This document shows positions 739-27,770 of a stretch of DNA of 40,000 bases, piece after piece. The translations under genes and the position numbers were made by a program. The stretch's first letter is position 1. Each line of letters begins with the position of its first letter. The stretch is from contig CAYUYX010000001.1 in assembly GCA_964449495.1 (NCBI GenBank), positions 2,332 to 42,331 of the forward strand. Reading direction: 5' to 3'. Source of the DNA: an uncultured Candidatus Bathyarchaeia archaeon (lineage in GTDB: Archaea; Thermoproteota; Bathyarchaeia; EX4484-135). The notes beneath the pieces were generated by a model. It was not told the origin of the DNA. It did no database searches and saw only the letters and a list, made by a program, of their open reading frames with translations.

Positions 739-1676
739 GGTCGCCTCCGCACCTCCTCATACTCGGTCCTGAGGGCCCGTAGAGCCTCACTCGTGCTGTA
801 AAAATCTGTCTTGAGCACTTGGCGGGTGCGCTCACATCTGAGGCTGGCATCTCTCGGGCGTGGTGCTAGCCAGCTAAACTCTTCCATCTCGGCCTTCTTC
901 ACCAGCTCCTTATTGAGGCCTAAGAACTCTGCGATCCTGAGGGCGAACTCGTGCCTGCTCATGCGCTCGCCCACCACATGGAAGATGCCCGTGGGCCTCC
1001 GCTCTAAGATCTCCACGAGGGCCTCCGCCAGGAGGCTGGCCTGGGTGGGCGTGGTGTACTGATCCACGAGCGCTCTCACGGGCTTGCCCGCGCTCAGGTT
1101 CTCCACGAGGAACTTAGCGAAGTTCTTCCTGCCAGGCCCGAGGCCGTAAATGGAACTTGCTCTCACGATGGATCTCCCGATGTCTGCCGTGAGGACAGCC
1201 ACCTCCCCACACATCTTCGTGAGGCCGTAGTAGTTGATGGGGCATGGGGGCTCGTGTTCCTCATACATGCCTCTGAGGCCATCGAAGACGTAATCGGTCG
1301 AGAGGTAAAGCAAGTAGTCCGCATATCGCTCAGCCGCTCTGACCACGTTAATGGTGCCTAGCACGTTCACATCCCAAGCCAGGGCGCGGTCGCGCTCACA
1401 GCCATCTACATCACCGTAGGCGGCCATGTGGATGACGGCCTCCGGCCGGTGCTTCTTGAACAAGCGCTCAAGGCCAATTCTGTCCCTCACGTCCAATCTC
1501 ACGGCCGTGAAGGCCTCGTGTTGGATGGGCACCTCATGGGTCAGGTAGGTGCCTACCACCTGGTGGCCCCGGCTGAGCAGAGCCAATGCTGCCCTATAGC
1601 CCGGCAGGCTACTGGCCCCTGTTATCAGCACCCTCAAGGGCTGTGATCCCCTCACTTGTGTGGAGGCCTGAACCAA
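735..1676 (-). CDS. rmlD: dTDP-4-dehydrorhamnose reductase (RmlD/RfbD-like SDR)
   Basis: 313-aa ORF with LITGASSLPGYRAALALLSRGHQVVG (Rossmann), LYLSTDYVFDG and YGLTKMCGE (YxxxK). It lies directly downstream of rmlC. The start may be a later GTG/TTG near 1640, since the ORF-track start overlaps rmlC by 25 nt. Confidence 0.8.
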   Translation of the reverse strand: MVQASTQVRGSQPLRVLITGASSLPGYRAALALLSRGHQVVGTYLTHEVPIQHEAFTAVRLDVRDRIGLERLFKKHRPEAVIHMAAYGDVDGCERDRALAWDVNVLGTINVVRAAERYADYLLYLSTDYVFDGLRGMYEEHEPPCPINYYGLTKMCGEVAVLTADIGRSIVRASSIYGLGPGRKNFAKFLVENLSAGKPVRALVDQYTTPTQASLLAEALVEILERRPTGIFHVVGERMSRHEFALRIAEFLGLNKELVKKAEMEEFSWLAPRPRDASLRCERTRQVLKTDFYSTSEALRALRTEYEEVRRRP

Positions 1677-2209
1677 TCCCAGGGCTTCCCCACGCGTGGG
1701 TCGTCCTCTCGGCCATTTATCTTAATAGGCACTATAGCCGGATCGTTCCAGGGCCTGCGGAGTTCATCTGGGTTCCTATAATCATAGAGCCTGTTCACGA
1801 AGTAGATCAAGTAAGCAGGCGCTGGTCCCACGACCTTAAAGCCGTGCCAGTATCGACCGGGGATTCTGAGAAGTTGCATCCTGTTCTCCGTCAACACAAC
1901 CTCGACCATGTGGCCCCTAGTAGGCGATTCTTCATCGTCATCATAAGCGCACACTTTTATAGCTCCCTTCACGACTAAGAAGTAGTCTACCTGCCCCCTT
2001 TGATGCTTGTGCCAGGCCCTTACGATGCCGGGGTAGGTTATTGATAGATTAGCCTGTACTATAGTGTCGCCGCCTAGGAGTTCTACCCAGTCAGAGCGCA
2101 TTATCTCTGTGAAGACGCCCCTTTCATCTGGAAATCGGACGAGATCGACGAGTTTAACACCAGGAAGGGCCAACTCTTTGACTGACCCTAAGAGGGGCAT
2201 GCTCACCAC
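1652..2209 (-). CDS. rmlC: dTDP-4-dehydrorhamnose 3,5-epimerase (cupin, RmlC/RfbC)
   Basis: 185-aa ORF with RmlC-type motifs FPDERGVFTEIMRSDW, ANLSITYPGIVRAWHKHQRGQVDYF and YWHGFKVVG. A GGTGGTGAG Shine-Dalgarno-like sequence precedes the ATG. Confidence 0.85.
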   Translation of the reverse strand: MVSMPLLGSVKELALPGVKLVDLVRFPDERGVFTEIMRSDWVELLGGDTIVQANLSITYPGIVRAWHKHQRGQVDYFLVVKGAIKVCAYDDDEESPTRGHMVEVVLTENRMQLLRIPGRYWHGFKVVGPAPAYLIYFVNRLYDYRNPDELRRPWNDPAIVPIKINGREDDPRVGKPWDWFRPPHK

Positions 2210-2513
2210 CTATGACCGACCTGAGGATGCCGTACGGTGTATTTAAGATTTTTCCAAGAGCCCAAAAAACGTGAAGCACAGTTCGACGAGGTGCCCGAAA
2301 GGGGGTATCTCGAGTATAGGCTCAATAGGCTTCACAGGCTATCTTGGCTTCTTACAGACCTCACACAGATAGTCTTGAGCAAGATGAACCTAAAGAACCT
2401 TTACGGCTCCTTAAGGAAACTATAGAGCACAGAACTAGAAGAACAGATTTACATTTATTGAACGTACTTAATTGGCTTCAAGGGAGATGTGACCTATCTC
2501 AGAATAAATAATG

Positions 2514-3226
2514 CTATTTTCGTTTCGGTTTAACGAAAAAGTCGGTATCCCAGAGACCGTTTGTTGTTTTTATTCGAATCCAGCATCGTAGGAGGGAACT
2601 TATCCAATCCAAAAATTTTCTCCAATGTCTGCGATCTGAGTTATCGAAGATGATAAGGCCACCTGGCTTTACTTTTGGTAAAGCATTTAGAAAGCAGGCA
2701 ATACGTGCCTCCCCATCGACTAGGATGAAGTCGAAGTATTCATCAGGATACTCATTTATAGCATTAAAATAATGTATGAATTCAGGTTGCGGTGGAGGTT
2801 TTTCTGTAATAATAATATCCCGGCCATACACTTTTCCAATCGATCCCACATAAATCTTCTGGAGAGACTGGGGGGATTAACTTCAGGTCTACGTTCCTTA
2901 TCGATCTTCTCTCAAGCATTGCTTTAACACGAGTAAACCATTTTTAGATCATGCTCAATACTTACAAGACGGTGTATTCGTCTTGCGAAAAAGATGCTAG
3001 ATCCACCCGATCCCCACTCAAAACCCTTCATTGAGGGGCGAAGCCACATAATTAGAATAGAGTTCGCTTCCTCAGTTAGCCATGGGAAATCCGGATGAAG
3101 AATTTGGTAAAGTTTATAACGTAATTCAGCAAAGGAAATCTTGGGATTTCTAATTAGAGTGCGAATTAGTTTAAGAGCATCAATATTAAATCGATCGTAG
3201 ATTAACTCATTTATTTTTGAAATCAT
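2514..3226 (-). pseudogene. Class I SAM-dependent methyltransferase, reading frame broken twice at homopolymers
   Basis: ORF 2924..3226 carries motif I (GFEWGSGGSSIFFARR...LVSIEHD). ORF 2514..2849 carries the distal half (FDFILVDGEARIACFLNALPKVKPGGLIIFDNSD). The third frame between them reads WFTRVKAMLERRSIRNVDLKLIPP without stops. The frame changes fall at the T5/A5 run 2941-2945 and the G6/C6 run 2870-2875. Confidence 0.65.
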
Positions 3227-3249
3227 CGCGAAACCTTATGGTGTATGAC

Positions 3250-3516
3250 GCTATCTAAACTGCTTACTGGCCTCCTTATAGCTAGTGAACGACATGGCAT
3301 TACGAAGCTGAAACATCCGTGCTTTCCCGGATTTGCGCCTGTAACGAACGAAACTCAGGCAGTCGCAGTTATAGGCGGTATGGTTGATTTAAGAGTAAGC
3401 CACTTACCCTTCCCCGTCAGAGCTGGTATTGTTCTTAATACTCCCACACTGGTCATATAATTGAGCACATCCCGGTTTACGCCGTCAGGCTCTATAACTA
3501 GGATCCTCGACTTTTT
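3250..3516 (-). pseudogene. N-terminal fragment of an alkaline-phosphatase/NPP-family gene (paralogue of 6044..7567)
   Basis: The minus strand reads RILVIEPDGVNRDVLNYMTSVGVLRTIPALTGKGKWLTLKSTIPPITATA*VSFVTGANPGKHGCFSFVMPCRSLAIRRPVSSLD. The intact gene reads MRVLVIGLDGVDWNVIDHM...TIPPITVTAWASFATGSNPGKHGCFSFLLPGRSLAEKRPISS. There is an in-frame TGA (3357..3355) where the paralogue has Trp, no start codon, and truncation after about 90 codons. Confidence 0.7.
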
Positions 3517-23711: not shown

Positions 23712-24407
23712 CTATAAGCTCGTGTAAACATCTATGCCTAGTTCTTTGGCCAGTTTCTTGGCTTCCTCCCTAACAAATGGGGATACTATGGCAAGCCTTG
23801 GCTTCACGCCCTTAATACGCTCGTAGAGCTGGCCCACCTTCCAGAGCTCATAGACATCTGCCCTGGAGACGCTAGATTTTATCTCCACTAAGATGTGTTC
23901 CTTATCACTAATGACCATATCCACCTCCACGGGGCTTGGAAAACCGAACACGAATCCCTCCTCGTCGTAGTGCGTCCAGCGCTCCACCCGGCCGCCGAAA
24001 TAGCGCTCCACTACACCCACCATGCCTGCCCTAAAGGATTCCTCGGCTAGTATTCCCCACCTAGCCCCCAAGGCGTCTATGTGCCTACGGAGGAGTTCGA
24101 AGCCCTTGTTCATATCCTCCCTGAGCCTGGCCAGCTCTTCATCATAGCGCTTAAAACCCTTGTTCATATCCTCCCTCAACTTATTCATGTCCTCCCTAAG
24201 CTTAATTAGCTCTTCATCGTAACGCTTGAATCCCCTGTTCATGTCATCCCTTAGCTTGACTAATTGTGCCTCATGGCTATCGAGCCTCTTCAATATCTCC
24301 TCAAGCCCTATCAACCCGGCTACAGCATAACGGAACTCCTCATCTTCCTTCAACAACCTCAGTATCTCGGACTTCAGGCTCCCCATGTCCCGCCCAGGCT
24401 CAGGCAC
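23712..24407 (-). CDS. Coiled-coil protein with C-terminal PD-(D/E)xK nuclease-like domain (resembles the DUF3782-type family common in Thermoproteales; from memory)
   Basis: 231 aa. The N-terminal half holds heptad-like repeats (LREDMNKGFKRYDEEL). The C-terminal half reads GARWGILAEESFR...VEVDMVISDKEHILVEIKSS, a D...E-x-K pattern. Confidence 0.65.
   Translation of the reverse strand: MPEPGRDMGSLKSEILRLLKEDEEFRYAVAGLIGLEEILKRLDSHEAQLVKLRDDMNRGFKRYDEELIKLREDMNKLREDMNKGFKRYDEELARLREDMNKGFELLRRHIDALGARWGILAEESFRAGMVGVVERYFGGRVERWTHYDEEGFVFGFPSPVEVDMVISDKEHILVEIKSSVSRADVYELWKVGQLYERIKGVKPRLAIVSPFVREEAKKLAKELGIDVYTSL
24100..24258 (-). repeat. Short in-frame tandem repeats (54-nt unit plus partial units) in the coiled-coil region
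   Basis: The protein reads LRDDMNRGFKRYDEELIK / LREDMNK / LREDMNKGFKRYDEELAR / LREDMNKGFELL. The DNA motif gttcatatcctccct and its variants recur four times on the plus strand. Confidence 0.7.
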
Positions 24408-24628: not shown

Positions 24629-25048
24629 TTGAGCGGTGAAAGGGTTAACATCATCAAGGAGAGGGCCCGTGCCTTCCTGGACCTCGCTAAAGAGCTAACC
24701 GACAGGAGGCCTGATATATCCTCCTTCAGCGTTCATCAGGCATGCCAGCTCAGGGTTAAGGCGTCACCGCTTAGGTTCACGGGCGAGGTGCCTAGGCTCC
24801 ACGGCATTAGAGAGCTCTTAGGAATGCTGGCGAGGAGGCTAGAAGACCTGGGCCTTAAGGAGGATGCCCTGAGGATCGTGGACTTCGTGAGGAGGCGGAG
24901 AGGCGTTCTCATAGATATCGAGGCGGCATATACCGAGTCGAGGTACGGTGCGGGGCCTATCGCCAAGGGCATCTTGGAGGAGATGCTGGGAGTGGCCGAG
25001 GAGCTCTTCAAGCTCTTAGACGAGGTTGAGGAGCATGTCCTGGGCTAA
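24629..25048 (+). CDS. HEPN-domain protein (partner of the minimal nucleotidyltransferase)
   Basis: 139 aa with a TTG start. The sequence ERARAFLDLAKEL...FSVHQACQLRVKA...HGIRELL...IEAAYTESRYG follows the HEPN (PF05168-type) helical pattern ending in the xSRY motif. Its 3' end overlaps the next gene. Confidence 0.8.
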   Translation: MSGERVNIIKERARAFLDLAKELTDRRPDISSFSVHQACQLRVKASPLRFTGEVPRLHGIRELLGMLARRLEDLGLKEDALRIVDFVRRRRGVLIDIEAAYTESRYGAGPIAKGILEEMLGVAEELFKLLDEVEEHVLG

Positions 25049-25376
25049 GTACCACCTAGGGCATCTCAGGAGGTGGAGGGAGGCCGTCGAAGCCATAGCT
25101 AAGGCGGTTAGGGACCTAGGCATCAAGGCAGAGCTATACGTCATCGGCGGCGCAGCCGAGTCCAGGCTCACGATCCTGAGCGACATAGATGTGCTCCTAT
25201 GCTTGAAAGAGGAGCTAGGGCCTGAGGACCTATGGGCTTTGAGGAGGAGGGTGCTGGGGGTAGCCATGGATAAGTATGGATTGCCCATGGACTACCCCGT
25301 AGAACTCCACATACAGGATAAGGAGACGTGCAGCAAGACCTTACGACGTGGGAAAGCCATAAAGGTGAAAATATGA
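25035..25376 (+). CDS. Minimal nucleotidyltransferase (MNT, Pol-beta superfamily)
   Basis: MSWAKYH...AELYVIGGAAESRLTILSDIDVLLCL carries the G(G/S)x9-13 D-x-D signature. The ATG at 25035 overlaps the HEPN gene by 14 nt (ORF-track start 25026 is TTG). Confidence 0.8.
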   Translation: MSWAKYHLGHLRRWREAVEAIAKAVRDLGIKAELYVIGGAAESRLTILSDIDVLLCLKEELGPEDLWALRRRVLGVAMDKYGLPMDYPVELHIQDKETCSKTLRRGKAIKVKI

Positions 25377-25516
25377 GTCAGGGATATGATCATACAGCAT
25401 GGATTATGGCACAGCCATACCTTACGGCGGTATTGGAGCTCGTAACAAGGTTACGGGACTGAGCCTTGTTGAAGCTTGATGGAGAATAACTTAATATAAA
25501 ACAAAAACTAATAACT

Positions 25517-26857
25517 CTAGGAGGGGACAGGGCTGGAATGGGGCATATAATCGTCAAGGCCACCATAAGGGGCAGGAAGGAACACATCGGCGAGTTCCTT
25601 GTGGATACGGGTGCATCGTTTACGGTCTTGCCTCTCGACCTTGCAGAGGAGGTGCTCTACGAGACCGTTCTGTCCCGCATGGACGTTCGGGACCTTTATG
25701 CCCATGTGGGACTTCCCAACTCCACTCCCATCTGGGAGCTTCATGGCCGGGCTTTCGGGGCGAACGGAAGTCCCCACATACCTCTGGGCTAAATTCCAGG
25801 CCCCAATAACGTCTCTGTTGGCCTTTAGGCCACAATTGGAGCACCTCAAGAGCCTATACCCATTCGGGCTGAGCTTGGCCCCACATATCGGGCATAGGCT
25901 CGAACTATTCCTGGGATTAACGTAAGCTACCCTGAGGCCTTTCAGCTTGGCCTTATACTCAATTATGGTTTGGAGTTGGCGGAAGCTCCATCTATGGAGC
26001 CGCCCATTAAGCTCACGGCCATACCTGATATGGCTCCTAATGCCCTTTAGGTCCTCAAGGACGATAACGCTCACGTCCTCAGCTAGGGCTTGCCTCACTA
26101 CCTCATTAGCTAGCTTATGATAGAGGTCCTTAGTCCTATTCCTCCCACGGCCACGATACTTGGCTAAGAGCTTGGCCCTGAGCTTCCCGCACTTGAGAGC
26201 CGATTGTATTCTCCGTCTCTTGAGGAAGTAAGCCACTCTGATGGGCCTCTCGCCTGTCCTTATCTGCCTGAAGCCACTAGGGCTGGCTATCGTGATATTG
26301 TTCTCATTAACGTCTATCGCCAGGACACGGCCATTAGGCTCCCTAAGCTCAACCTCTGTCCTAAAGACAACCTTAAGCCATAGCTCACGGCCACGCTTGA
26401 CGAGCCACGCCTGTCCCGGCCTCATGGCCTTAAACTTCTCATGGTATTGGCCGTGAAGTAAGCGGAATTTGGCACGTCCTCTAGGCGTGGCTATTGAGAC
26501 CGTCCAGCTATCAAGGTCCAGGCTAAAGAGGTGGTCATCCAGCATTATAGTGTCCTTTTTGAAGCTGGGTCTATCGGCCTTAACACGACCACGCCTCTTA
26601 AGCTTTCTAAAGACCTTGTAGATGGAGCAAGCCATTTGACAAGCCGTATAGATATAATGGCTCGGTAGCTTGGGTAATCTGGCCCTTAACTCACGGTATT
26701 TCTCAGCCTTGAGGCGCTTAAAGCTCGTTATCCTTCTAGCGTGAGCATAGAATAGAAGCTCGTTAAGCATACTCCGGTAAGTAGAGAATAACGGCTCCGC
26801 TAGGCCCTTAGGGCCATCTAACTTGAAGTTGGCCGTGAGCTTAATCGTCTCTTTCAT
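25517..26857 (-). CDS. tnpB: TnpB (IS200/IS605 OrfB; RuvC-like RNA-guided endonuclease family)
   Basis: Motifs are VLAIDVNENNITIA (RuvC-I Asp), VIVLEDLKGIRS (RuvC-II Glu), CPICGAKL...LLRCSNCGLKANRDVIGAWNLAQR (Zn finger plus RuvC-III Asp). The start MKETIKLTANFKL at 26857 forms ATGA with the RHH stop. The last ~47 codons lie outside the inferred IS end. Confidence 0.85.
   Translation of the reverse strand: MKETIKLTANFKLDGPKGLAEPLFSTYRSMLNELLFYAHARRITSFKRLKAEKYRELRARLPKLPSHYIYTACQMACSIYKVFRKLKRRGRVKADRPSFKKDTIMLDDHLFSLDLDSWTVSIATPRGRAKFRLLHGQYHEKFKAMRPGQAWLVKRGRELWLKVVFRTEVELREPNGRVLAIDVNENNITIASPSGFRQIRTGERPIRVAYFLKRRRIQSALKCGKLRAKLLAKYRGRGRNRTKDLYHKLANEVVRQALAEDVSVIVLEDLKGIRSHIRYGRELNGRLHRWSFRQLQTIIEYKAKLKGLRVAYVNPRNSSSLCPICGAKLSPNGYRLLRCSNCGLKANRDVIGAWNLAQRYVGTSVRPESPAMKLPDGSGVGKSHMGIKVPNVHAGQNGLVEHLLCKVERQDRKRCTRIHKELADVFLPAPYGGLDDYMPHSSPVPS
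25538..25660 (+). pseudogene. 5' half of a retropepsin-like (clan AA) aspartic protease gene, interrupted by the IS
   Basis: MGHIIVKATIRGRKEHIGEFLVDTGASFTVLPLDLAEEVLY carries the D-T-G-A catalytic motif. The rest of the 84-aa ORF-track product is antisense of tnpB and not protease-like. The continuation is at 27098. Confidence 0.7.
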
Positions 26858-26997
26858 TCCTGGCTCACCCCTTGCTCCTTTAACCACTTCTTAATGAGTT
26901 CCCGTACCACCTGGGCCTTTTTGAGGCCGAGCTCGGCACATTTCACGGAGAAAGCCCTAAAAGTAGCCTCATCCAAGTCTATGCTCAACCTAGGCAT
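26854..26997 (-). CDS. Small ribbon-helix-helix (CopG/Arc/MetJ-like) protein, 47 aa (52 aa if the ATG at 27012 is used)
   Basis: Below the ORF-track size cutoff. I translated the minus strand base by base and got (MGGGG)MPRLSIDLDEATFRAFSVKCAELGLKKAQVVRELIKKWLKEQGVSQE*. The pattern is a beta-strand (RLSIDLD) plus two amphipathic helices. The stop overlaps the tnpB ATG (ATGA). Confidence 0.6.
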   Translation of the reverse strand: MPRLSIDLDEATFRAFSVKCAELGLKKAQVVRELIKKWLKEQGVSQE

Positions 26998-27032
26998 GCC
27001 CCCACCACCCATCACTTAACTGAGTAGCTGAG

Positions 27033-27042
27033 TATTTAAAGC
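27033..27042 (-). promoter_or_regulatory. TATA-box-like element (minus-strand GCTTTAAATA) inside the IS left end, upstream of RHH-tnpB
   Basis: It lies 20 nt upstream of ATG 27012 and 35 nt upstream of ATG 26997, which fits archaeal TATA-to-TSS spacing of about 25 nt. Confidence 0.45.
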
Positions 27043-27097
27043 TTACCCCCTTGCCGAGACGTATCTAAAGGTTCCCTTTGTCCATATTTTATGTTAC

Positions 27098-27322
27098 TAC
27101 CCCTACACGGTCGAGCTCAGGCTAGGCGATAGTAGGAGAGTAGGGGCCAAGGTGTTTATAGGAGAGGTCGAGATCGAGGACAGGAGAGGCCCCGTGAGAA
27201 TACTGGCGTTCCCAGGAGCACAGCCAGTCATAGGCGTAGACACATTGGAGACGTTAGGGCTAAAGGTAGATCCCACAACGGGCAGACTTGAGAAAACAGA
27301 ATATTACATGCTCTACATCTAA
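27098..27322 (+). pseudogene. 3' half of the retropepsin-like aspartic protease gene
   Basis: My translation is YPYTVELRLGDSRRVGAKVFIGEVEIEDRRGPVRILAFPGAQPVIGVDTLETLGLKVDPTTGRLEKTEYYMLYI* (stop 27320-27322). This is the typical C-terminal half of small archaeal clan AA proteases (GxDxLexLGlxvDp). It is not in the ORF track because it has no start. Confidence 0.7.
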
Positions 27323-27362
27323 CGCTAAAAAAGCTTAAAAGCAAAGGCTACTGAGTGTTAAG

Positions 27363-27770
27363 ATGCCTCCAAGGTGGGCCAATATGGGACGGCTAGGAGG
27401 AGCTAAAAGGGCCTTGGAGCTCGCCCTCGAGGAGCTTGAGAAATATCGCAAAGATCGTGAAGCTTTGAGGCTTAGGGATGCTTGTGAAAAGGGCTGGCTG
27501 GCGGTAGTGCTGGCGACCGATGCGCTGTTGATTAGCTTTGGTTATAAAAAGCCGGAGAGCTACAGTGAGAGGAGGAGGGCGCTCGAAGACCTAGAGGCGA
27601 AGCATCCTAGGATATCCGAGCTAGGTCTAATGGATAGATTTGGTGCTAGAGGATACTACCTACACATACAAGGCTACCATGAAGGGATGTTGAGCGATAC
27701 TGAGGTAGAAACGGAATTGGCGAAGGTCAAAGAATATATAGATGATGTGGAGGAAATACTTAGGGGTTAG
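27363..27770 (+). CDS. PaREP1-family protein (HEPN-like helical domain family typical of Thermoproteales)
   Basis: 135 aa. The sequence LELALEELEKYRK...ACEKGWLAVVLATDALLISFGYKKPESYSERRRALEDL...LGLMDRFGARGYYLHIQGYHEG matches my memory of the PaREP1 pattern (EKxWxA...sH/Y..R......LH..fYeg). Confidence 0.65.
   Translation: MPPRWANMGRLGGAKRALELALEELEKYRKDREALRLRDACEKGWLAVVLATDALLISFGYKKPESYSERRRALEDLEAKHPRISELGLMDRFGARGYYLHIQGYHEGMLSDTEVETELAKVKEYIDDVEEILRG

Follow-up and report, generated by a model that had tools for sequence, protein, structure and literature searches.

The window analysed here, a 40,000-nucleotide (nt) stretch of DNA from an uncultured Candidatus Bathyarchaeia archaeon (assembly GCA_964449495.1, contig CAYUYX010000001.1, positions 2,332 to 42,331 of the forward strand), contains a gene for a retropepsin-like aspartic protease that is split by an insert. 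On its minus strand the insert carries tnpB and, immediately upstream of it, a small gene for a predicted ribbon-helix-helix (RHH) protein. An earlier note on this DNA, made from its letters alone, had singled out this arrangement. The features of the locus are as follows; loci and proteins from our searches are cited by L and P numbers.

25538-25666, plus strand: 5' half of the gene for the retropepsin-like aspartic protease, with 43 codons (M...DTGAS...LAEEVLYET); in the empty-site allele L056 and in the orthologues PYTV comes next.
27101-27322, plus strand: 3' half of the protease gene (PYTVELRLGD...TEYYMLYI, then stop), read from the orthologues and L056.
27100-27103, no strand: C run at the left junction, which reads as a G run on the element strand; with CC at 25665-25666, the target or crossover run.
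27061-27099, minus strand: left end (TAGTAACATAAAATATGGACAAAGGGAACCTTTAGATAC), with a degenerate former tnpA TATA box (TTTAGATA, 27069-27062) where L058 has TTTAAATA.
27033-27047, minus strand: promoter of the RHH cassette, a GGTAAGC resembling the transcription factor B recognition element (BRE) plus the TATA box TTTAAATA (27040-27033).
27017-27034, minus strand: candidate operator, tandem TACTCAG-C / TACTCAG-T directly downstream of the TATA box, from a repeat search.
26998-27016, minus strand: 5' leader with a G-rich stretch of putative Shine-Dalgarno function (AGTGATGGGTGGTGGGGGC), conserved in L003, L048, L050, L051 and L059.
26854-26997, minus strand: RHH gene, 47 codons plus TGA, assigned from Pfam RHH matches, AlphaFold2, Foldseek, a PDB profile and the ratio of non-synonymous to synonymous change (pN/pS).
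25517-26857, minus strand: tnpB, 446 codons plus stop, with RuvC residues D182/E268/D349 and zinc-finger cysteines C322, C325, C339 and C342; the last 49 codons come from the flank.
25665-25777, minus strand: right end and omegaRNA-like scaffold (GTGGGG...CCGTTC..CCCCGAAAGCC...terminal stem...CAGAACGG), overlapping the 3' end of tnpB.
25645-25664, minus strand: predicted omegaRNA guide, the 20 nt of flank straight after the right end (TCTCGTAGAGCACCTCCTCT), placed from TnpB/omegaRNA biology.

The interruption of the protease gene is documented from both sides. On the plus strand, an aspartic-protease frame with the motif DTGAS begins at 25538 and the matching frame terminates at 27322; re-joined, the two halves match Pfam Asp_protease_2 (E 7.6e-8). 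A search with the re-joined protein returned 155 intact relatives, the closest of which are 116 amino acids (aa) long, 88-91% identical and all with LAEEVLYETPYTVELRLGD. These intact 116-aa orthologues read LYETPYTV across the junction. The empty-site allele L056 is 96% identical to the window over 25140-25666 and then resumes at 27100-27363, and it comes from the same sample (ERZ27227318) as the occupied L001. L056 and the orthologues together delimit the insert as 25667-27100, 1,434 bp, with an uncertainty of 1 nt either way inside the C run, in agreement with the earlier view of a tnpB/RHH segment inserted in a protease gene. The boundaries first proposed (25661-27097) were a few bases off, and the protease ends in GRLEKTEYYMLYI rather than GRLEK. 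Because the empty-site allele and the orthologues fix the insert at these positions, the RHH gene (26854-26997) lies inside the inserted DNA; comparison with the intact orthologue had been named as the test that could place it outside.

The minus-strand tnpB of the insert, as first read, is borne out by profile matches and catalytic motifs. Its open frame is listed as 25517-26887, with the ATG at 26857-26855. The protein matches NCBIfam NF040570 (guided_TnpB, RNA-guided endonuclease TnpB) at 164.3 bits against a cut-off of 100 and Pfam PF07282 (Cas12f1-like_TNB) at 71 bits against 26.3 (E 8e-20). In an alignment with Cas12f/TnpB structures, D182 (AIDVNE), E268 (VLEDL) and D349 (NRDVIGAWN) occupy the catalytic positions, and the C4 zinc finger is intact (CPIC...CSNC). 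An identical protein, P0123, lies on a 95.8-kb contig. The 40-kb window has neither a second tnpB nor any transposase.

The tnpB frame has no in-frame stop within the element: it crosses the omegaRNA-like scaffold and then 49 codons of flank to 25517. In 26 relatives the stop ranges in position from 71 nt short of the right end to 148 nt past it, and in about half of the clade it falls in flanking DNA. The site of insertion therefore determines which C-terminal tail these TnpBs have. In the window, this tail (25517-25664, minus strand) is antisense to the 5' end of the protease gene. We had suspected a frameshift in the window tnpB, because the L004 frame, 1 nt different, stops at the right end. 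This was rejected: most relatives conserve the window frame (...PESPxMK...) and stops past the right end are common in the clade, so that L004/L058 is the shifted copy.

The right end was defined from the same 26 relatives, in which about 110 nt after the RuvC-III motif are conserved and each sequence ends in (C/T)AGAACGG, the window version being CAGAACGG (25665). Directly past this terminus the sequences are unrelated. RNAalifold gave two helices with 10 pairs in total and compensatory changes at all 10, and the window scaffold (25777-25665) folded on its own with a z-score of -2.0. An Rfam scan of 25400-27300 at E<=1 returned no match to an omegaRNA family. The 20 nt of the predicted guide are also present in the empty allele L056, adjoining the G run. 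The layout is that expected of an omegaRNA scaffold with a flank-derived guide. A longer right end, suggested by similarity between the window and L004 flanks (GTAGAGCACCTCCT against GTAGGGCAGCTCCT), was rejected because all 26 relatives stop at CAGAACGG and the match is offset by 4-5 nt.

The ancestry of the element was traced through a scan for TnpB relatives with one genome per species, which gave 44 loci at 50-84% identity from Thermoproteota, Bathyarchaeia, Korarchaeia, Archaeoglobi, Thermococci, Asgard and other archaea; 30 of these loci were inspected upstream of tnpB. In at least 16 of the 30, an upstream gene overlaps tnpB and its product ends ...IAIVTSFAGRLYGMRSHKKKKVVE...RD. In full, this upstream protein is a serine transposase of the IS607 family, matching NF033518 with 219 bits (cut-off 110), and such a serine-recombinase tnpA is carried by L004/L058, L060, L061, L005, L028, L006, L010 and others. 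Upstream of tnpB, none of the 30 carries a Y1 transposase gene, and every transposase that does occur there is a serine recombinase.

The closest relatives by protein search are the autonomous elements L058 (one locus with L004), L060 and L061, in which a tnpA encoding a MerR helix-turn-helix (HTH) and a resolvase domain is followed by tnpB. L058 aligns with the window in two blocks. The left block is 93% identical over 43 nt (27103-27061), including four flanking bases of the G/C run; the right block, which holds tnpB and the right end, is 86% identical over 26852-25664. Homology breaks exactly at the tnpB start, and L060 and L061 show the same pattern, with an 85% match to the window in the left end of L060 and 84-86% identity in tnpB plus right end among the autonomous relatives. 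In L058 the left end leads into the tnpA TATA box (GGGAACCTTTAAATAC); the window equivalent is degenerate (TTTAGATAC) and is followed by a new promoter and the RHH gene. A promoter+RHH cassette of about 200 bp thus stands in place of about 620 bp of tnpA, and tnpB starts with ATG in the window as against TTG or GTG inside tnpA in the relatives. On these alignments, the element is a non-autonomous derivative of an archaeal IS607-type TnpB transposon in which the tnpA segment was replaced by a promoter+RHH cassette.

This ancestry revises part of the earlier reading. Its statement that no HUH/Y1 or serine-recombinase gene is present stands, as neither a serine recombinase nor a Y1 transposase occurs in the element or anywhere in the 40-kb window. 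Assignment to IS200/IS605 or to generic IS1341-type copies does not hold, with at least 16 relatives carrying a serine-recombinase tnpA that overlaps tnpB and L058 sharing the element's ends. The RHH gene does sit in the tnpA slot, as proposed, but the slot is that of a serine recombinase gene and not of a Y1 transposase.

Loss of tnpA is a repeated event in this clade, given the number of tnpA-deletion derivatives. L012, L013, L014, L021 and L036 keep the left end, the tnpA promoter, the first tnpA codons (MPEKLY...) and the last ones (...VV..AIRD), fused ahead of tnpB. Many of the other loci inspected in the 44-locus scan are such tnpA-deleted remnants, and none carries the window-type RHH. 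An RHH-like open reading frame (ORF) upstream of L036 (826-1000) was considered as part of the element and rejected, being a flanking VapB-type gene. L036 is a tnpA-deleted element inserted at the 3' end of this VapB-type RHH gene, which is also the source of a weak tblastn match to the window RHH. In L062, a close TnpB occupies positions 1-1064 in rearranged or truncated form, matching 71% of the query at 90% identity and containing an internal duplication, and a resolvase+TnpB element at 1535-3494 lies 0.5 kb from it, so that IS607-type copies are clustered there.

The same architecture as in the window, left end followed by RHH cassette and tnpB, stands beside unrelated flanks at at least three other sites (L050, L059 and L063). 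The site is the 3' end of another gene in L050 and an ABC ATPase gene in L063, and L059 has yet another, unrelated site. The L063 contig (coverage 1.95x) joins the ABC ATPase, the left end plus RHH and the C-terminus of ribosomal L19e; it is probably chimeric, and its left-end junction alone was used as evidence. Aligning other copies, as had been proposed, fixes both ends of the element, the left one in L050, L059 and L063 and the right one in the 26 relatives. The shared junctions demonstrate, at the level of sequence comparison, that the RHH-tnpB pair has moved as a unit. Autonomous relatives occur in the same or sister samples, ERZ27227321 holding L060 together with L003, and Ga0180302 holding L061, L062 and L051, and mobilisation in trans by such relatives is plausible.

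IS607 reportedly inserts at GG dinucleotides with a duplication of 0-2 bp. The flanks at the left end fit a preference for G runs, as they end in GGGG in L050, L058, L059, L063, L012-L014 and L036 and in GGG in L060. At the protease site, the empty allele L056 has five Cs and the occupied site six, two at the right end and four at the left end.

The RHH gene is a 47-codon ORF (MPRLSIDL...VSQE) at 26997-26857. Its TGA (26856-26854) overlaps the tnpB ATG (26857-26855) as ATGA, so the start-stop overlap described earlier is present at 26857-26854. The ORF, earlier stated to be missing from the ORF list, is listed at a minimum of 30 aa, and the source contig has a called gene for a 52-aa version of it. 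Four Pfam RHH families match at E 4e-4 to 2e-3, RHH_1 with 20.4 bits against a cut-off of 20.5, ParG with 20.8 against 21.4, and RHH_9 and 56B_RHH also below their cut-offs. The AlphaFold2 model has a predicted local distance difference test score of 85.7, with an extended N-terminus, helices at 10-23 and 27-41 and only about 6 residues after helix 2. The inspected Foldseek matches in the PDB are all RHH proteins (ParG and CopG at the top, then MazE6-N, CopA, PutA, Arc, NikR, MatP, Sulfolobus ORF56 and AmrZ), with E-values that are weak (at least 0.01), the domain being tiny. A profile of three homologues matched ParG in the PDB at E 9.4e-5. Modelling and profile comparison therefore support the RHH fold predicted from the strand-helix-helix pattern.

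The gene is under purifying selection, with a pN/pS of 0.08-0.10 across copies (11-13 synonymous against 3-4 non-synonymous differences). L048, L050 and L051, 80-86% identical to the window at the DNA level, keep the RHH ORF, and the overlap with tnpB is kept as GTGA in L048, L050, L051 and L059, the copies with a readable junction. The conservation anticipated for the small ORF, upstream of tnpB with a 4-nt overlap, was thus found. In L051 (1152-1520, 123 aa) and P0250 (114 aa) the RHH protein is longer, with a DUF3072-like C-terminal domain (E 4e-7) placed before the conserved ...SQE end; the tnpB overlap is still GTGA.

Close relatives of this RHH are rare: a word-indexed search gave 2 matches, and 4 metagenome loci carry one. 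A full HMMER search returned 85 cluster representatives at E<=1e-3, which define a family of 40-60-aa proteins with the motif PR(I/L)S(I/V)DL(D/E)E..F..FS(I/V)KC...KK.(E/Q)V(I/V)R.LI..W. Alignment searches of a viral contig collection confirmed no relative, tblastn found none in a phage collection, PADLOC and NCBIfam searches gave no match, and the ORF shows no similarity to TnpA. L003 resembles a mosaic of two variants and was used for the RHH coding comparison alone. The 46 nt upstream of L003 were examined as a decayed copy of the protease site and rejected (BLAST match of 13 nt, E 43).

The cassette has its own promoter. The TATA-like box pointed out earlier on the minus strand is present as TTTAAATA at 27040-27033, and the promoter is conserved in every cassette copy, including the virus-like loci L049, L052 and L053. 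In L003, L048 and L051, homology to the window starts exactly at this promoter. The motif TACTCAG has four sites in the whole 40 kb, two of them in the promoter, 8 nt apart, and none at the right end. In L059, which carries a different RHH, both promoter repeats read TACTCTT, a single but suggestive case of co-variation between an RHH and its repeats.

L059 merits a closer description. Its TnpB is 84% identical to that of the window and is preceded by a different RHH (2735-3004). The small ORF begins (VPR) and ends (EVSRK, then stop) with codons homologous to those of the window, and the leader, promoter and left end ahead of it are homologous as well. The body of the small ORF matches RHH_5 (E 2e-5) and RHH_1 (E 3e-3), and BLASTP of this RHH against the window RHH gave no match. 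That RHH genes unrelated in sequence recurrently occupy the tnpA slot speaks for a functional slot. The cassette is also found outside tnpB elements: the same promoter with an RHH of 63% aa identity precedes a gene for a NUMOD3/DUF559 protein in L049 (350-1092), and the same promoter+RHH cassette precedes a gene for an HNH/HTH protein in L052 and L053 (L053 4001-4553). Large, repeat-rich proteins that resemble fibres are encoded as well on the contigs of L049, L052 and L053, which may derive from archaeal viruses or proviruses.

Taken together, the element is probably a non-autonomous IS607 derivative whose Arc/CopG-like RHH protein acts as an autorepressor of an RHH-tnpB-omegaRNA operon. A single transcript, starting about 25 nt downstream of the TATA box at 27040-27033, would bear RHH, tnpB and the omegaRNA. 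RHH dimers would bind the tandem TACTCAG, which overlaps the transcription start, and shut the promoter down, so that TnpB and omegaRNA would be held low yet constantly present. With the flank 25664-25645 as guide, TnpB and omegaRNA would cut insert-free alleles such as L056, and recombinational repair of the break would copy or retain the element. For new insertions the element would depend on autonomous relatives such as L058, L060 and L061, whose serine TnpA would act in trans.

A number of observations weigh against this proposal or against parts of it. In L003, L048 and L051 no left end can be recognised, and these copies may be immobile or rearranged. The candidate operator rests on a short repeat and one co-varying example, and the virus-type cassette lacks the double TACTCAG despite a near-identical beta-strand (PRMSIDLD). 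The Pfam RHH scores lie slightly under the gathering cut-offs. No autonomous copy was shown in the same genome, and there is none in the 40-kb window. The window TnpB is nearer to that of the tnpA-linked L004/L058 (88%) than to that of the RHH-linked L048 (82%), which suggests that the history of the element involves recombination. Finally, the net gain of 1 nt at the junction (5 to 6 Cs) misfits a clean 2-nt GG crossover; the extra base is possibly a later homopolymer slip or an assembly error.

Among the alternatives, the one that survives best, although we consider it unlikely, is a toxin-antitoxin-like addiction pair, in which the RHH would bind TnpB and block guide or target binding and autoregulation would be secondary. 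The small RHH gene coming first with a 4-nt overlap is the classic layout of type II toxin-antitoxin systems, the structural neighbours include the RHH antitoxins MazE6, CopA, ParD and VapB, and the co-folding model of Altae-Tran et al. 2023 (PMC10691335) provides a precedent. The C-terminal extension of the L051/P0250 variants (77 aa) could touch a partner, and L003, L048 and L051 retain both genes without a left end. On the other hand, RHH antitoxins normally bind the toxin by a long C-terminal tail, whereas the window RHH has 47 aa, its helix 2 ends at residue 41, and a C-terminal extension is found in the L051/P0250 variants alone. The window TnpB has the DED triad and the zinc finger, unlike the Altae-Tran clade with its D-to-H change and no zinc finger. 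We favour a repressor over an antitoxin because the 47-aa RHH has no tail, the same cassette precedes unrelated nucleases, and an unrelated RHH serves the 84%-identical TnpB of L059; agreement with the experiments on bacterial Arc (10.64898/2026.09.24.754181) favours it further. Of the two roles offered earlier for the RHH, control of tnpB remains plausible and that of an addiction partner becomes the lesser rival.

It is improbable that the RHH is instead a transposition cofactor, standing in for the MerR-HTH of the lost TnpA, marking the left end for TnpA acting in trans, or serving as a directionality or immunity factor. Such a role would suit its place exactly in the tnpA slot beside the left end, the fact that IS607 TnpA has its own HTH, and the accessory part that RHH proteins play in partition systems and relaxosomes; ParG and NikA-like families are among the matches. 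However, the sole repeat motif is in the promoter with none at the right end, the cassette also precedes nuclease genes outside transposons, and copies without a left end retain the cassette.

We likewise give little credence to a domesticated pair, that is, a host or defence RNA-guided nuclease or regulator with its own repressor, for which the protease insertion would be old and fixed. The window has no tnpA and a single copy in 40 kb, no left end is recognisable in L003, L048 and L051, and many archaeal TnpBs show low recent mobility (PMC10691335). Against this, the 96%-identical empty allele L056 shares sample ERZ27227318 with the occupied L001, both ends are intact, with about 85-93% identity to the ends of autonomous elements, several different insertion sites are known, and the guide is simply flanking sequence. 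The reading of the small ORF as a chance frame or tnpA-deletion remnant with no functional protein, for which one could cite the meaningless remnant ORFs of many tnpA-deleted relatives (e.g. L012, L013 and L036) and the sub-threshold Pfam scores, is effectively refuted by the pN/pS of 0.08-0.10, the confidently predicted RHH fold, the motif shared by 85 cluster representatives, the conserved promoter and Shine-Dalgarno-like leader, and the lack of TnpA similarity.

The neighbourhood of the split gene holds further features. Directly upstream of the protease gene, at window 24629-25376 on the plus strand, lies an overlapping, toxin-antitoxin-like pair of HEPN (E 3e-14) and nucleotidyltransferase/MNT (E 3e-5) genes. 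A PaREP1 (HEPN-like) gene follows the protease gene (window 27363-27770, plus strand), and in L054 (3844-6711) four Asp_protease paralogues are interleaved with PaREP1-type genes, which suggests a recurrent protease/PaREP1 pairing in such Thermoproteales-like genomes. The existence of protease paralogues may be a reason why loss of one copy is tolerated. A 75-nt tandem repeat in two copies, 79% identical, lies at window 24105-24251, inside a minus-strand ORF (23712-24407).

The pairing of an RHH gene with tnpB has been described before, contrary to the earlier belief that no such module was known. Altae-Tran et al. 2023 (PNAS, PMC10691335) reported archaeal RHH/MazE-TnpB pairs with a rearranged RuvC-III (D to H), scored them as non-mobile and proposed a toxin-antitoxin role; their RIIIr-4 also lacks the zinc finger. 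Zedaveinyte et al. 2023 (10.1101/2023.11.20.567912) described Arc-like ORFs in IS605/IS607 IStrons and also beside homing endonucleases and toxin-antitoxin systems. Moon et al. 2026 (10.64898/2026.09.24.754181) found that Arc binds and represses transposon promoters (IS605-family), including those of elements with only arc and tnpB. We therefore do not describe a new class of system; the window is a new documented example of a known RHH-TnpB pairing.

The comparison with these systems is nevertheless informative. Like the archaeal RHH/MazE-TnpB pairs (PMC10691335), the window locus is archaeal and has a small RHH gene immediately upstream of tnpB. Unlike them, its TnpB has NRD (D349) and an intact C4 zinc finger, its ends are of IS607 type, and the locus is apparently not immobilised, as there are an empty-site allele and other sites (L050, L059 and L063). 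With the bacterial Arc elements (Zedaveinyte et al. 2023; Moon et al. 2026) it shares an RHH-fold microprotein inside the transposon boundaries next to tnpB, the occurrence of arc+tnpB-only forms, RHH relatives that adjoin homing endonucleases, and repression of the element's own promoter, which is demonstrated in bacteria and proposed here. Those elements come from Clostridia and others and have sigma-70 promoters, with arc and tnpA often divergent from tnpB. In the window, by contrast, the host is archaeal, the promoter is of BRE/TATA type, the RHH gene is co-directional with tnpB and overlaps it, and a serine tnpA was replaced. This likeness to bacterial Arc is one of fold, gene arrangement and proposed logic.

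Within the IS607 family, the element is close to its relatives in the left end (85-93% identical), in tnpB with the omegaRNA-like region and right end (84-86%), in the G-run flanks and in the ...GAACGG terminus, and differs in having no serine-recombinase tnpA. With IS1341-type solo tnpB copies it shares a non-autonomous state, with tnpB and guide RNA but no transposase; classical copies of that type carry nothing in place of tnpA, whereas the window carries a selected RHH gene and belongs to the serine (IS607) and not the Y1 lineage. The predicted RHH protein itself resembles the CopG, ParG and Arc repressors, which have 43-76 aa and the same strand-helix-helix order (ParG E 9e-5, CopG TM-score 0.6, Arc TM-score 0.7). 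It differs from them in identity (13-33%) and in its archaeal transcription context; the operator here is a candidate, and dimerisation and binding are predicted.

A broader possibility, which we raise tentatively, is that promoter+RHH is a portable "governor" cassette that thermophilic archaea and their viruses swap among unrelated selfish nucleases, making IS607 derivatives self-limiting and homing-type, with repressor and operator co-evolving. If so, the pairing of RHH type 1 with two TACTCAG repeats and of the L059 RHH with two TACTCTT repeats would give each lineage its private regulation or immunity, and the cassette, by replacing the transposase in IS607 derivatives, would turn them into self-limiting, homing-type RNA-guided nuclease genes.

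For a single TnpB/omegaRNA element, the occupied site, the empty site and the autonomous parent have all been recovered, providing a natural example in which the transposase was lost and a selected, putatively regulatory RHH gene was gained. The locus also offers a candidate repressor and operator for use in archaeal genetics, along with a compact TnpB/omegaRNA pair of thermophilic origin for which the L056 sequence supplies a defined native target. Archaeal RHH-TnpB pairs have so far been rearranged, immobile and read as toxin-antitoxin systems; the present example extends the Arc-TnpB association from bacteria to a catalytically canonical and apparently mobile archaeal IS607 lineage. Because two unrelated RHH genes share the tnpA slot and the same cassette precedes other nuclease genes, the finding argues that selfish nucleases repeatedly recruit a small autorepressor.

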